Made by a program: the position numbers and the translations under genes
The notes under the pieces: generated by a model
The model's database searches: none
What the model was told of the DNA's origin: nothing
What the model saw: only the letters and a program-made list of their open reading frames with translations
Part shown: in pieces, positions 10,947 through 23,932 of the stretch
How the letters are laid out: every line of letters begins with the position of its first letter
Position numbering within the stretch: the stretch's first letter is position 1
Assembly (NCBI GenBank): GCA_001818705.1
Contig: MHJM01000010.1
Location: 1 to 25,426 of the forward strand
DNA from: Candidatus Harrisonbacteria bacterium RIFCSPLOWO2_02_FULL_45_10c
Lineage (GTDB): Bacteria; Patescibacteriota; Minisyncoccia; UBA6257; 02-FULL-45-10c
Direction: 5' to 3'
DNA: 25,426 bases

Positions 10947-10976
10947 ATTCTATAACGCAACCCAGTATTTTTGCAA
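10947..10976 (-). promoter_or_regulatory. Putative efp promoter
   Basis: Minus strand TTGCAA-18 nt-TAGAAT. The predicted start site falls at the edge of element C (about 10941). Confidence 0.5.
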
Positions 10977-11186
10977 CATTCGGGCTGGCGGTGGGATCAT
11001 TCAGAAATTACCAGAGAGTATCCTCCTGACGGCACCGGCGTTCGCCGATTCCAGCGATCGGCGCCGCCTACACCTCGTCCCGATTCTCCTAATGGAACCA
11101 AGCAAATCGGGATTCCGGAGTTGCCGCACGGAGGATACTCTCTGGTTATAAATGGAGGCGATGTTGCAAAAATACTGGGTTGCGTT
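10954..11186 (+). repeat. Element family D, copy D1 (contains nested B2)
   Basis: Perfect 26-bp inverted repeat 10954-10979/11161-11186, enclosing TCGGGCTGGCGGTGGGA (10980-10996) and AATGGAGGCG (11151-11160). Both motifs are identical in D2. Confidence 0.88.
11010..11146 (-). repeat. Structured element family B, copy B2
   Basis: Perfect 17-bp closing stem 11010-11026/11130-11146. Minus strand carries GTGCGGCAA, GCTTGGT, GAGGTGTAG and CCGGTGCC. Confidence 0.92.
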
Positions 11187-11194
11187 GTTATATT
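11164..11194 (+). promoter_or_regulatory. Putative promoter of the nucleotidyltransferase gene
   Basis: TTGCAA (11164-11169) and TATATT (11189-11194), a long 19-nt spacer; ATG 7 nt downstream. Confidence 0.4.
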
Positions 11195-11201
11195 GAATGA
11201 T

Positions 11202-11930
11202 ATGGCTATAGTCAAAAAAGCAATAATTTTAGCGGGAGGAAAAGGCACTCGGCTTTATCCGGTGACTTTGGAAACTCCAAAGCCGCTTTTAACCGTGAAT
11301 AAAAAACCGATTATCAATTACCTGATTGACATGTTCCGCCGGCACGGCGTTACGGAAATAGCCGTTACCGTCCGGGAAAGCGATTTTGATGATTTTTCCT
11401 GGTGGCTTCGCCGCTGGCAGAATAATCTGGTCAATCTGATAGTGGAAAAAGAGCCGATGGGGACGTTCGGGCTTTGGGCGCACCAGCTCCATACCTGGAC
11501 CGGCAACGAACCGTTTTTCCTGACTAATGGTGATGAGTTAAAAGATATTAATCTATTCGAGATGACAGCGCATCATGAAAAAATAGGCGGCTTAGCGACT
11601 ATTGCGGCAGTGGAAGTTCCGAATCCGAATGAATATGGAGTAATTGTTTTTGACGGCCAGCGCATTAAAGAATTTTTGGAAAAACCGGAGCATCCGCCGA
11701 CTAAATTCATTTCTTCCGGCTTATATATTTTAGAGCCGGGAATCCGGGAAATGATTGCCGATAAAGTTAAATCTGGAGAAAAATTTTTGATGATAGAAAA
11801 AGATTTATTTCCGAAATTGGCAGCGGAAAAGAAATTGGCCGCCTATCGGTCAAAAGGGAAGTGGTTTGATTGCGGCAATCTCGAGCGTTGGGAAAAAGCG
11901 ATTAAGGAGTGGGGTCCGGAAACAAAATAA
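11202..11930 (+). CDS. Nucleotidyltransferase (NTP_transferase family, sugar-1-phosphate nucleotidylyltransferase-like)
   Basis: KAIILAGGKGTRLYP, PKPLL, EKEPMGT, NGD, FLEKP and WFDCG motifs. Start reassigned to the ATG at 11202. Confidence 0.9.
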   Translation: MAIVKKAIILAGGKGTRLYPVTLETPKPLLTVNKKPIINYLIDMFRRHGVTEIAVTVRESDFDDFSWWLRRWQNNLVNLIVEKEPMGTFGLWAHQLHTWTGNEPFFLTNGDELKDINLFEMTAHHEKIGGLATIAAVEVPNPNEYGVIVFDGQRIKEFLEKPEHPPTKFISSGLYILEPGIREMIADKVKSGEKFLMIEKDLFPKLAAEKKLAAYRSKGKWFDCGNLERWEKAIKEWGPETK

Positions 11931-11958
11931 TGCCTTTGGATATCCAAAGGCATTATTT
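11925..11958. terminator. Bidirectional terminator-like perfect 34-bp palindrome
   Basis: AAATAATGCCTTTGGATATCCAAAGGCATTATTT, between convergent genes. Confidence 0.75.
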
Positions 11959-11989
11959 ATTCCACTTTCTTAATTTCCGGAAACTATTC

Positions 11990-21455: not shown

Positions 21456-21467
21456 CGCAGAAAATTT

Positions 21468-21500
21468 AAAATCCCGAACTTGTAAAAGTTCGGGATTTTT
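21468..21500 (+). terminator. Intrinsic terminator
   Basis: 14-bp stem AAAATCCCGAACTT/AAGTTCGGGATTTT with a GTAA loop, followed by T-rich sequence. Confidence 0.75.
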
Positions 21501-21519
21501 TATATTCTTTATTAATTCT

Positions 21520-22935
21520 ATGGCAATTTACCGGGTTGTGTTTTGGAGTGGCACTGCATTTTTATCCGGCATACTGCTGGCCAGCATTAATCGGCCGCTG
21601 ATTGCCGGCATTGCGATTTTTTCCGCTAGTACTGCCATTATTTATTTTTTGTTCCGCCGGAATTTTCTTTTTGGTTTTCTGGCGCTTGGCATTATTGCCG
21701 GCGTTTTTTATTATCGGGCTTTTGAGCGCATTCAGATGAATTCGGTTTTGATTCCGTTCGGTACGGAGAGTGAGATTCGGGGATTGGTAATTGAGCGGGA
21801 ATTGCGCCCATCATCGCAACGAGCTGTTGTGGAACTTACTGATCCCTGGCGCGGGAAAATTCAGATTACTGCCAGGCGATATTCGGAATTGAATTATGGC
21901 GATATCATAACCGCGCAAGGCGCAATCGATCCATTGGTTCCGGAACGGGCTGATTATTTTTTAAAAAACGGAATTTTCGGCACCATGGATTTTCCGGACA
22001 TCGCTGTTTCGGAATCCGGCAAAGGCAATGCCGTTAAATCGGCGCTTTTGAATATTAAAGACAAGATTGTGGCGACTTTTAATAAAGCATTACCCGCGGA
22101 CAAAGCGGCGCTACTGTCCGGCATCACGCTCGGTTACCGGAGCGATTTTTCCAAAGAACTGACGGAACAAATGCGATTAAGCGGCACGACTCATCTGACC
22201 GCGCTTTCCGGATATAATATTATGGTCATTATCTTGGCAGTAACCGCCGTCACCGGCAGGTATTTTTCCAAAAATCTTTCGTTCCTTATTACGGCGGCAG
22301 CGGTCGTGCTATTTGTCATTATGGCCGGCGCTGAAGCATCCATTGTCCGCGCGGCCATTATGGGCGTTATCGCGGCGGTGGGAGAGCGGTTACAGCGGCT
22401 TCGCAGCGCCGATGCCGCTGTTATGGTTACGGCCACGGCGATGGTTTTATTTAATCCGCGGCTGCTGGTTTTTGACCTGGGATTCCAGCTTTCCTTTTTG
22501 GCGTTATTGGGGATTATCTATCTTAAGCCGGCGCTCCAAAATTTTTTTAAAAGCAATCAGCCAGGCATTTGGTCCTGGCGGGAAAATGCGTTTACGACTG
22601 CCGCCGCGCAATTGGCGGTCGCGCCGCTGATTTTGGGAACCTTTGGAACTTTTTCCTTAACCGCGTTATTCGCCAATGTTTTGGTGCTGGAAGTGATACC
22701 GATAACGATGGCGTTGGGATTTATCATCGGCGGGGCGGGATTTCTGTCCCAATTTTTAGCGGGCGTCGCCGGTCTTCCGGCCAGTATTTTTCTTGGTTAT
22801 GCCCTTTGGGTTATCGGTGTTTTCGCGCGCTTTACTTTGCCGATAACCGTGGCAGCAATGCCGATAGCGTTCGTATTTTTATATTACGCCTTACTGGCAG
22901 GATTTATACGCAAATATGCAAAAGCCGCCTTATAG
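21520..22935 (+). CDS. comEC: ComEC/Rec2 competence channel (OB-fold plus Competence domain)
   Basis: GTTHLTALSGYN, ASIVRAAIM, DLGFQLSFLA and ANVL motifs. Confidence 0.93.
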   Translation: MAIYRVVFWSGTAFLSGILLASINRPLIAGIAIFSASTAIIYFLFRRNFLFGFLALGIIAGVFYYRAFERIQMNSVLIPFGTESEIRGLVIERELRPSSQRAVVELTDPWRGKIQITARRYSELNYGDIITAQGAIDPLVPERADYFLKNGIFGTMDFPDIAVSESGKGNAVKSALLNIKDKIVATFNKALPADKAALLSGITLGYRSDFSKELTEQMRLSGTTHLTALSGYNIMVIILAVTAVTGRYFSKNLSFLITAAAVVLFVIMAGAEASIVRAAIMGVIAAVGERLQRLRSADAAVMVTATAMVLFNPRLLVFDLGFQLSFLALLGIIYLKPALQNFFKSNQPGIWSWRENAFTTAAAQLAVAPLILGTFGTFSLTALFANVLVLEVIPITMALGFIIGGAGFLSQFLAGVAGLPASIFLGYALWVIGVFARFTLPITVAAMPIAFVFLYYALLAGFIRKYAKAAL

Positions 22936-23815
22936 ATTCGCAATTATTATTGCCAGCGTTTTTATTCTGACGGATGCGGCGCTGTGGTACGGAATTATTT
23001 TTGACCGGGCAATTGCCGGTCCGGAGGTTTATTTCCTGGATGTCGGCCAGGGCGACAGCTCGCTGGTACTGCTGCCGGACCGCTTTCAGCGAGTCTCGCC
23101 TTTGGCGGATAATTTTCCCCATAAGATAAAAATTCTTATTGACGGCGGTCCGCCTAACGGCAAAGTGCGAAAAAATCTGGAAAATATCTTTCCGGCCAAT
23201 GACCGCTACATTGACATGGCGGTGATTTCTCATCCTCAGCTGGACCACTTCGGCGGTTTTATAGATTTATTTGAAAAATACGATGTCGGCATTTTGGTGG
23301 TCGGACCGGCCGCCGGCAAAGGCGTTTATTGGGAAGCCTTGCGGGCGGTAATTGAAAAACGTAAAATTCCGGTTATCGTTCTTAGCGCCGGATCGACGAT
23401 TACTTATGGCGAATCGCAGTGGGAAATTATTTCTCCCGATTCCGGCGCCGCCGCGAAAGATATCAATGACTTAGCTTTAGTGATGAAGCTGGAGAGCGGC
23501 GGCATATCCGCATTGTTTACCGGAGATATTGGAGCGAATACTGAAGTAGCGCTGGCGGCGGCTTACGATATTGACGTCGATATTTTAAAAGTAAGCCACC
23601 ATGGTTCCCGTTTTTCATCCAACGGCGTTTTTCTTAAAGAAGTCAGTCCGCTGATTTCGGCAATTGAAGTCGGAAAAAATAGCTACGGCCACCCGACGGA
23701 AGACGCTTTGCGGCGGCTGGCCGCCGTTAGCTCGCAAATCTACCGGACCGATGCCAATGGCCTGATTAAAGTTGCTTATCAAAATCAGCAGCTGAAAGTT
23801 TTTAGTGAACGTTAG
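22916..23815 (+). CDS. Stand-alone ComEC-type metallo-beta-lactamase-fold nuclease domain
   Basis: FLDVGQGDS, LIDGG, SHPQLDHFGG, LFTGD, LKVSHHGS, NSYGHP and RTD motifs. Confidence 0.88.
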   Translation: MQKPPYRFAIIIASVFILTDAALWYGIIFDRAIAGPEVYFLDVGQGDSSLVLLPDRFQRVSPLADNFPHKIKILIDGGPPNGKVRKNLENIFPANDRYIDMAVISHPQLDHFGGFIDLFEKYDVGILVVGPAAGKGVYWEALRAVIEKRKIPVIVLSAGSTITYGESQWEIISPDSGAAAKDINDLALVMKLESGGISALFTGDIGANTEVALAAAYDIDVDILKVSHHGSRFSSNGVFLKEVSPLISAIEVGKNSYGHPTEDALRRLAAVSSQIYRTDANGLIKVAYQNQQLKVFSER

Positions 23816-23826
23816 CATAATCTCAA

Positions 23827-23932
23827 TAAATCCAAAACCTCTCTTCGGCTGACCGCCTCCATTAGTAAACCCTTTCAGGGTAAATAGTTCCCACCGCCAG
23901 CCCGAGTCAGCCTCACAGAGGTTTTGGATTTA
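23827..23932 (-). repeat. Element family D, copy D2
   Basis: 16-bp outer stem 23827-23842/23917-23932 and 7-bp stem GGCTGAC/GTCAGCC. Minus strand TCGGGCTGGCGGTGGGA and AATGGAGGCG are identical to D1. Apical hairpin ACCCT-GAA-AGGGT. Confidence 0.88.

Follow-up and report, generated by a model that had tools for sequence, protein, structure and literature searches.

Two hairpin-shaped elements, D1 and D2, lie on opposite strands of the window analysed here, i.e., the whole 25,426-nt stretch of contig MHJM01000010.1 from Candidatus Harrisonbacteria bacterium RIFCSPLOWO2_02_FULL_45_10c, and raise the question of what kind of element keeps the same loop within different stems. The two copies do carry identical motifs, as the first-pass annotation of this DNA had proposed. 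The window contains exactly two occurrences of the 17-nt motif TCGGGCTGGCGGTGGGA, at 10980-10996 (+) and 23889-23905 (-), where about 0.03 matches would be expected by chance even allowing three mismatches. The 10-nt motif AATGGAGGCG, not significant by itself, is found at 11151-11160 (+) and 23854-23863 (-), immediately adjoining the 3′ arm in both elements. D1 is a long-form element of 233 nt (10954-11186, +) composed of a closing stem (P1), the 17-nt motif, a P2 stem bearing a nested B element, and the 3′ motif. Its P1 arms (10954-10979 and 11161-11186) are 26 nt long and 100% complementary, its conserved 5′ loop motif, the 17-mer plus TC, spans 10980-10998, and its 3′ motif terminates in the family-wide AGGCG. 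D2 is a short-form element of 106 nt (23827-23932, -) and the best match of the genome to covariance model R1 (E 3e-18). Its 5′ arm (23906-23932) and 3′ arm (23827-23853) are 27 nt long and 89% complementary, the stem being laid out as 7 bp, a 4x4 internal loop with tandem G.A, and 16 bp. The closing stems had been described as unrelated, which is true of D1 versus D2 but does not wholly hold family-wide, where a T-tract lies about 7 nt from the loop in most copies, and within subfamilies, where the stem-proximal 7-12 nt are common. Promoter and terminator scans at D1 and D2 gave no signal exceeding background.

The tips of the two elements are occupied differently. As previously read, the D2 apex is a 13-nt hairpin with a GAAA-type loop (23869-23881, -), while the same slot in D1 holds an entire B element in the opposite orientation: B2, comprising the element and its own closing stem with 28-nt arms (11007-11149, -), aligns with B1, B3 and B4. 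The reverse complement of the D1 tip (11000-11155) aligns end to end with the B copies at 5687-5831, 23992-24136 and 20291-20439, every conserved block being common to all of them over covarying stems. The proposal of nested insertion or module swapping is supported and proves general, yet the D1-type D+B composite is no one-off at this locus, being a lineage present in several genomes. Some tips were empty; others contained a small hairpin, a long hairpin lacking B (copy L143 of genome G009), the variant D′, a B element (at least 11 copies) or a second D (8 copies in 2 lineages). At two loci, related strains differ solely by the nested insert (L145 versus L242, and L163/L237 versus L183), and all identified guests (B, D and D′) are antisense to their host. 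The D tip is a tolerant, permissive slot.

Family D is a multicopy, patchily distributed and recently duplicated repeat. The collection of further copies with the motifs, which the earlier reading had called for, comprises 78 distinct copies with 60 distinct arm types. The 546-kb source genome (G000) contains about 12 D or D′ modules, 6 of them D copies, and three relatives from the same taxonomic family (G004, G009 and G012) carry 8, 7 and 5 D copies, respectively; most of the 23 genomes of that family carry none. Within the class, a relaxed D motif matched 20 of the 401 genomes sampled (~5%), spread over many families, with 0 control matches, and carrier genomes hold up to 10 or more copies. 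Copies C6 and C9 of the source genome are nearly the same in sequence yet differ in their flanks, and many copies are located at contig ends, as expected of repeats, which break assemblies. Searching wider genome contigs for the exact 17-mer returned almost exclusively chance matches in high-GC DNA, and none of the nine viral-contig matches, all in high-GC DNA, had D features (arms or 3′ motif). In Rfam 15, no family matched D, the sole match at the gathering threshold being a tRNA, and E-value scans of both D regions against Rfam returned chance-level matches alone (E above 2). Family D is a hairpin-shaped repeat, apparently undescribed, that is widely scattered among ultra-small groundwater bacteria (Patescibacteria).

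The closing hairpin of D comprises 20-38 bp, in which pairing is kept while the sequence drifts. Compensatory changes were observed at 9 of 9 P1 pairs, with 93.7% paired versus 51% in shuffles; mutual information across the copies revealed no base pairs besides P1 and none extra inside the loop. Over the 60 distinct arm types, mismatches in P1 are strongly strand-specific, with 51 G.U versus 14 A.C and 38 G.A versus 1 C.U. Counted by copy, they lean towards the G-rich strand in 35 cases and towards the opposite strand in 3. The strand with the G-rich motif is therefore the one on which folding is preserved, and in short-form copies it folds 4-18 kcal/mol better. Derivation of the stems from local host hairpins was ruled out for the main subfamily, whose arms are conserved both at the outer end and next to the loop and vary only in the middle. 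The loop itself is asymmetric and almost invariant, reading TCGGGNTGGC-NNN-GGGR-TC on its 5′ side and ending an A/G-rich 3′ side with AGGCG.

Family D is probably a non-autonomous, structure-dependent, small selfish mobile repeat, like the Rickettsia palindromic elements and REP elements. Its conservation is the inverse of that at an ordinary transposon end: the stem drifts but stays paired, the loop is invariant, and the permissive tip accepts antisense guests. This pattern suggests that a folded single strand is what is recognised. In the mechanism that we propose, a trans-acting factor would recognise D in its folded, single-stranded form (ssDNA, possibly RNA) by reading the conserved loop, and existing hairpin tips would be preferred landing or exchange sites. 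It is also conceivable, though doubtful, that D, D′, B and other hairpin families form one modular system, in which an enzyme would read the conserved loop on a single strand once folded and copy or swap modules at existing hairpin tips, always antisense. Were this the case, the conserved loops displayed by the stacks would differ between the two DNA strands, and mobility would be guided by structure through a mechanism without any described transposase. Several observations weigh against a selfish element. The search for a mobilising enzyme came up empty among GIY-YIG, Y1, reverse transcriptase and PF07282 candidates. Target-site duplication was not consistently observed: among 27 long copies, whose exact ends are uncertain, one (L142) showed a significant flanking direct repeat, of 27 nt. 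Nor was a clean empty site recovered for any whole D element; the rmuC/MBL neighbourhood of D2 is not conserved in other genomes of the family. A functional RNA would also account for the near-identical loop over many families, and covariation together with strand-specific G.U pairs is an RNA-like pattern.

Family D could indeed be a functional structured RNA, a possible but rather unlikely reading in which D would act as an independent small RNA or as a 3′-end processing or stability element, its G-rich loop binding a protein or a ligand, with multicopy occurrence and nesting being secondary. Tandem G.A pairs and GNRA-like loops on tip hairpins would suit such an RNA, as would the strong P1 covariation and a loop that is nearly the same in many families of the class. 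Covariation could also arise without selection on RNA, through template-switch correction of quasi-palindromes, and such correction may explain the pattern in D. The position of copies directly after stop codons, at a median distance of about 11 nt, would likewise suit an RNA, but copies lie in either orientation: 17 are antisense and 14 sense relative to neighbouring genes, and 21 versus 19 relative to GC skew. This absence of bias argues against an orientation-dependent role in mRNA, as half of the copies would put the C-rich complement into the message. Some long-form copies are preceded, about 5 nt upstream of P1, by the extended -10-like sequence TGTATAAT, so that long forms could be transcribed autonomously, which counts for an RNA and against a purely selfish repeat. 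Distribution points the other way, with 0 to 10 or more copies per genome in only ~5% of class genomes, and nested inserts are polymorphic among strains. In two organisms (copies L227 and L164), argS contains an in-frame D with compensatory arm changes, the reading frame running through the element, which forms a 25-residue insert in ArgRS; this is the sole in-frame site among about 80 D copies, and a B element lies within mnmA. Perfect stems of 26-38 bp are moreover atypical for riboswitches and most small RNAs, and the lack of an Rfam match likewise tells against a functional RNA.

The conserved loop had first been described as G-quadruplex-like, with invariance of its GG runs put forward as a check, and it is improbable that the functional core is a G-quadruplex of two tiers that stacks on the closing duplex. 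Spinach and Mango aptamers are artificial RNAs that adopt such a G-quadruplex-on-duplex fold, and D resembles them in its irregular GG runs within a helix-closed internal loop. Such invariance was not borne out. Among 32 copies gathered without an exact-match requirement, 18 have the third GG run replaced (AGT, TAC, ATC, AAC, AAT or TGT), which leaves three runs in the 5′ motif where four were supposed, and the second run is broken in two source-genome copies. A quadruplex within the 5′ motif would thus be unable to form in those 18 copies, judging from the motif alone, and the runs required for a local quadruplex are not conserved, which separates D from Spinach and Mango. In all copies the 5′ motif retains three or more GG runs and the 3′ AGGCG keeps its invariant GG, and a cross-loop quadruplex borrowing this GG would be possible. 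In addition, a local quadruplex is predicted in the minimum-energy fold when position 11 is G, as in 32 of 53 short copies. Runs 2 and 3 are never missing together (0 copies, about 1 expected), which is not significant. Variation within the motif is greatest in the triplet at positions 11-13. The non-G positions T1, C2, T7, C10, T18 and C19 match the G runs in invariance, although a quadruplex would not require T7, C10 or the flanking TC. Sequence-specific recognition fits this pattern better than a quadruplex does.

It is highly improbable that the RAYT-like Y1 transposase of the source genome has D as its cognate REP/REPIN and moves it as single-stranded DNA. The shape and strand specificity of the D hairpin would suit HUH enzymes, and an IS200-like Y1-domain protein of about 226 aa is present in G000, G004, G012 and G037. 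However, no Y1 gene was found in G009, G001, G371 (which has 10 D copies), G370, G252, G311, G334 or G508, and IS200-like Y1 genes occur in 14 of 20 D carriers (70%) versus 235 of 381 non-carriers (62%). The Y1 gene of the source genome (G000:C22) is flanked not by D but by a private 21-nt palindrome found nowhere else in the genome, and its contig contains neither the D motif nor an R1 match. Mobilisation by a Y1/RAYT enzyme is disfavoured by these observations, as it is by the unbiased orientation of D relative to GC skew. Other enzymes fared no better. Hairpin-enclosed mini GIY-YIG genes exist in 23 of 23 genomes of the family irrespective of D, in numbers that do not track it and with arms that differ from D arms. 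Reverse transcriptase is present in just 3 of 10 carriers; two D copies lie less than 2 kb from DGR-type reverse transcriptase genes, a proximity read as incidental because D is not at the variable-repeat end. The Cas12f/TnpB-type zinc-ribbon domain (PF07282) was not found in the five carriers searched, save for one sub-threshold match. Finally, the loop motif is dismissed as a Shine-Dalgarno sequence, as the 16S rRNA of the source genome has no CCUCC tail and GGAGG is often AGAGG, AAAGG or ATAGG, and as a likeness of the E. coli Chi site or the sigma-54 -24 box, whose relevant motif positions are the variable ones.

Patescibacteria genomes are among the smallest and most streamlined known, yet this one contains about 12 D-type modules in 546 kb. 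D is accompanied by other repeat families in the window; it fills short post-gene gaps and at times lengthens essential proteins. Knowing which factor reads the loop would explain the persistence and spread of repeats in genomes nearly devoid of classical transposases. In practice, D-type repeats fragment assemblies, look like regulatory RNAs and terminators, and may be misread as gene-specific leaders.

Several known systems resemble D in part. Like integron attC sites, D keeps structure over sequence and appears to act through a single strand folded into its functional form; unlike them, it has no R/L boxes, cassette arrays or common orientation, and is scattered among housekeeping genes. 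Correia, ERIC and BOX-type MITEs are likewise small non-coding repeats beside genes that form long hairpins in transcripts, and pneumococcal repeats have been reported to insert into each other (PMC10969869). The defining features of MITEs are terminal inverted repeats that are conserved and duplications of the target site (PMC10969869), whereas D has variable termini (60 arm types in 78 copies), a conserved interior loop and no consistent target duplication, its exact ends being uncertain. With REP/REPIN-RAYT systems, D shares interspersed extragenic palindromes near gene 3′ ends in both orientations, strand-specific imperfections and a presumed mobilisation via a folded single strand (PMC3337134, PMC3733652). 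REPs, which are 20-40 nt long, are marked by a conserved tag (GTAG or CGTC) and lie on either side of their RAYT gene (PMC3337134, PMC3733652), while D spans 64-380 nt, has a 17-19 nt G-rich loop motif and no GTAG/CGTC tag at the stem foot, and neither adjoins nor correlates with Y1 genes. Rickettsia palindromic elements (RPEs; Ogata et al. 2000), as described in PMC10969869, are similarly hairpin-shaped repeats of about 100-150 bp, occurring as several families in a reduced genome with no transposase of their own. They insert both in intergenic regions and in frame within essential genes, as D does in argS and B in mnmA. The likeness is one of kind: the sequences differ, and homology would not be expected between phyla that differ also in GC content. 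Nearly half of RPEs are intragenic, versus one in-frame site in about 80 D copies, and D alone keeps an invariant asymmetric loop over a covarying stem and hosts other modules in its tip, in fixed antisense orientation.

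The window spans positions 1 to 25,426 of contig C10 in the source genome (546 kb, 35 contigs). Exact matches to the 17-mer TCGGGCTGGCGGTGGGA are found at 10980-10996 (+) and 23889-23905 (-), against a chance expectation of ~0.03 matches even at three mismatches permitted; AATGGAGGCG lies at 11151-11160 (+) and 23854-23863 (-) and in each case adjoins a long inverted repeat at its 3′ arm. These are the two hairpin-shaped repeats of family D, namely D1 (10954-11186, +), with 26-nt arms of perfect complementarity, and D2 (23827-23932, -), with 27-nt arms that are 89% complementary (7 bp and 16 bp separated by a 4x4 internal loop) and a 13-nt hairpin at the tip. 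When reverse-complemented, the D1 tip can be aligned along its whole length with the window's three other copies of B, a second hairpin repeat family (5687-5831, 20291-20439, 23992-24136), with all conserved blocks in common and covarying stems. The first-pass annotation had described identical shared motifs, closing stems of 26 bp versus 7+16 bp, a 13-nt apical hairpin in D2 and a B element (B2) in the opposite orientation at the D1 apex; motif positions, arms, D2 tip and B alignment all agree, and this description is therefore correct.

The source genome carries six D copies at no more than one mismatch in the 17-mer. A diverged subfamily, D′, with the motif TCGGGWTGGCTACGGGGTC or a close variant, stands alone on contigs C11, C13, C23 and C35 and is also nested in the tips of D copies on C14 and C31. 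Among 23 genomes of the same family, G004 holds eight copies, G009 seven, G012 five and G001 a single diverged one, with none found in the remainder, all D copy numbers being lower bounds because many copies lie at contig ends. Across ~118 genomes from other families of the order, clear copies were found in G037 only. At the class level, the relaxed pattern TCGGGNTGGCNNNGGGRTC matches 20 of 401 evenly sampled genomes, spread over many different families with at most 10 copies per genome, while its reversed control gave zero matches in the same 401. A metagenome scan yielded many further copies, from groundwater-type samples, and the wider collection called for by the earlier annotation now amounts to 78 distinct copies.

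From 5′ to 3′, D consists of a closing stem (P1, 9-38 bp), a 5′ motif of 17-19 nt, a linker of 8-13 nt, a slot, an A/T-rich linker, a 3′ motif terminating in AGGCG, and the 3′ arm of P1. Minimal forms (64-100 nt) have nothing in the slot; in other copies it is filled by a GNRA-type short hairpin (D2) or by a long hairpin, either alone (locus L143) or with another module at its tip. In 46 short forms, 93.7% of P1 cells are paired, versus 51% after shuffling, with double changes at all nine pairs, and mutual information revealed no paired columns other than P1. The 60 distinct arm types contain 1357 Watson-Crick pairs, 51 G.U versus 14 A.C and 38 G.A versus one C.U, and arm types unrelated to one another have tandem G.A pairs in an identical position. 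The mismatches lean toward the G-rich strand in 35 copies and toward the opposite strand in three, and short forms fold better on the G-rich strand by 4-18 kcal/mol; the preserved fold therefore belongs to the strand bearing the G-rich motif. This mismatch pattern does not separate RNA from single-stranded DNA, because in DNA, too, no mismatches are more stable than G.T and G.A.

The conserved loop, with four or more GG runs, had also been proposed as able to form a two-tier G-quadruplex stacked on a duplex. In the 32 copies found without an exact-motif requirement, the 5′ motif has four GG runs in 14 and three in the other 18; the copies on C14 and C31 have an interrupted run 2. Variation within the motif is greatest at positions 11-13 (GGT, AGT, TAC, ATC, AAC, AAT, GGC, TGT), and T1, C2, T7, C10, T18 and C19 match the G runs in invariance. 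Quadruplex-aware folding predicted a local quadruplex in 32 of 53 short copies and in none of the position-11 A variants inspected. From the run counts, the variable positions and the equally invariant non-G positions, it follows that a local quadruplex is not conserved, and the proposal is unsupported; a quadruplex using the invariant GG of AGGCG is formally possible.

The suggestion of nested insertion or module swapping is supported by the wider family. At least 11 D+B composites, using four different stems in the tip slot (P2), occur in the source genome, G004, G009, G012 and metagenomes, and the P2 stem of L138 recurs in L143 (G009), where it ends in a 4-nt loop and lacks B. Some D elements contain a second D (L123 of G004 and a set of metagenome contigs), others a D′ (C14, C31 and L242). 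Every identifiable guest is antisense to its host (at least 19 copies, at least five lineages). Sense D-in-D nesting would give close, deletion-prone direct repeats, which leaves the antisense B unaccounted for. L145 (G012) and L242 have the same arms and one flanking gene in common and are distinguished by a nested D′, and a 163-nt third-level hairpin sets the metagenome locus L183 apart from L163 and L237; tips are therefore dynamic over short time scales. This hairpin represents a further family and sits at the centre of a short palindrome, CCT-T-AGG, in the nested-D loop, and the inner D of the same group is located in a TAA-G-TTA-like site, which hints that guests land at palindrome centres. 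An outer pair of short conserved, GCGAGCGA-like flanks, pairing with tandem G.A, encloses stand-alone B at 5680-5840 and 23985-24145 as well as many metagenome D copies (L181, L182, L226, L240), which suggests a further shell family hosting D or B.

Among the outermost copies, 40 could be classified: 17 are flanked on both sides by genes antisense to D and 14 by sense genes, with five lying between divergent and four between convergent genes; local GC skew relative to D orientation is split 21 versus 19. The nearest stop codon is a median of ~11 nt away, D1 being an exception, with the 5′ end of efp on one side and that of a nucleotidyltransferase gene on the other. In argS of two organisms, a minimal D occupies the same position and is read through in frame; its arms differ between them through compensatory changes, and the C6 and C9 copies are near-identical at different loci. 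The lack of orientation bias, the patchy multicopy spread, the C6/C9 near-identity and the in-frame copies are more in keeping with a selfish repeat than with a gene-specific RNA. D is most likely a structure-dependent selfish repeat moved by a putative mobilising factor acting in trans.

An extended -10-like TGTATAAT followed by CTTAA lies just outside P1 in L122, L137 and L143 (5′ flank) and L142 (3′ flank) and is common to long-form D+B copies of three genomes; judging from this motif, the composite may have a promoter of its own. L142 also lies between imperfect direct repeats, 27 nt long, of a promoter-like stretch. The 16S rRNA gene of the source genome (C19, ~37100, minus strand) ends ...GTGCGTGGATTAATTAAAC after the conserved AAGTCGTAACAAGG box, lacking the usual CCUCC anti-Shine-Dalgarno tail, which is compatible with leaderless or SD-independent translation. 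RmuC, whose family is associated with restraining recombination at short inverted repeats, is encoded at 24245-25288, directly downstream of D2 and B3, a neighbourhood not kept in relatives.

Among candidate mobilisers, an IS200-like Y1 protein (~226 aa) is present in the source genome, G004, G012 and G037. The gene in the source genome (RAYT-like, 226 aa; C22:4909-5650, L335:1200-1962) is surrounded by a 21-nt palindrome of its own, present in three copies and absent from the rest of the genome, and those of G004 and G012 share the arrangement with a different palindrome. This candidate was rejected on account of its private palindrome, its class-wide distribution (14/20 D carriers versus 235/381 others) and G371, in which 10 D copies and no Y1 gene were found. 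Reverse transcriptase occurs in 3 of 10 D carriers. Tiny GIY-YIG genes (90-112 aa; L324:1456-1760 on C31 of the source genome, L327, L326, L322), each between the arms of its own hairpin, a 14-24 nt inverted repeat, are present in all 23 family genomes in 1-14 copies and were discarded, their numbers being independent of D. No consistent target duplication was found at D copies, nor a syntenic empty site for D2. L399 (G012 C5:219500-227000) contains a diversity-generating retroelement (features at 2562-3539, 3967-4092 and 4454-4579), made up of a gene for reverse transcriptase plus template and variable repeats of 126 nt with 88% identity; the variable repeat forms the 3′ end of a 211-aa gene, with a D copy ~200 nt upstream of that gene. 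Near reverse transcriptase genes in L400 (G004 C83), a 300-nt direct repeat (469-768 and 2161-2460, 100% identical), with a doubled adjacent ORF pattern, is either an artefact of assembly or the product of recent tandem duplication.

The kinds of element nearest to D are Rickettsia palindromic elements (RPEs), REP/REPIN and bacterial MITEs (PMC10969869, PMC3337134, PMC3733652). It has neither the defining features of REP-RAYT systems nor the conserved terminal inverted repeats of classical MITEs, and shares its in-frame habit with RPEs. The literature searched yielded no report linking Patescibacteria with such repeats. D is an apparently new family, set apart by its invariant asymmetric loop, class-wide spread and antisense-only nesting.
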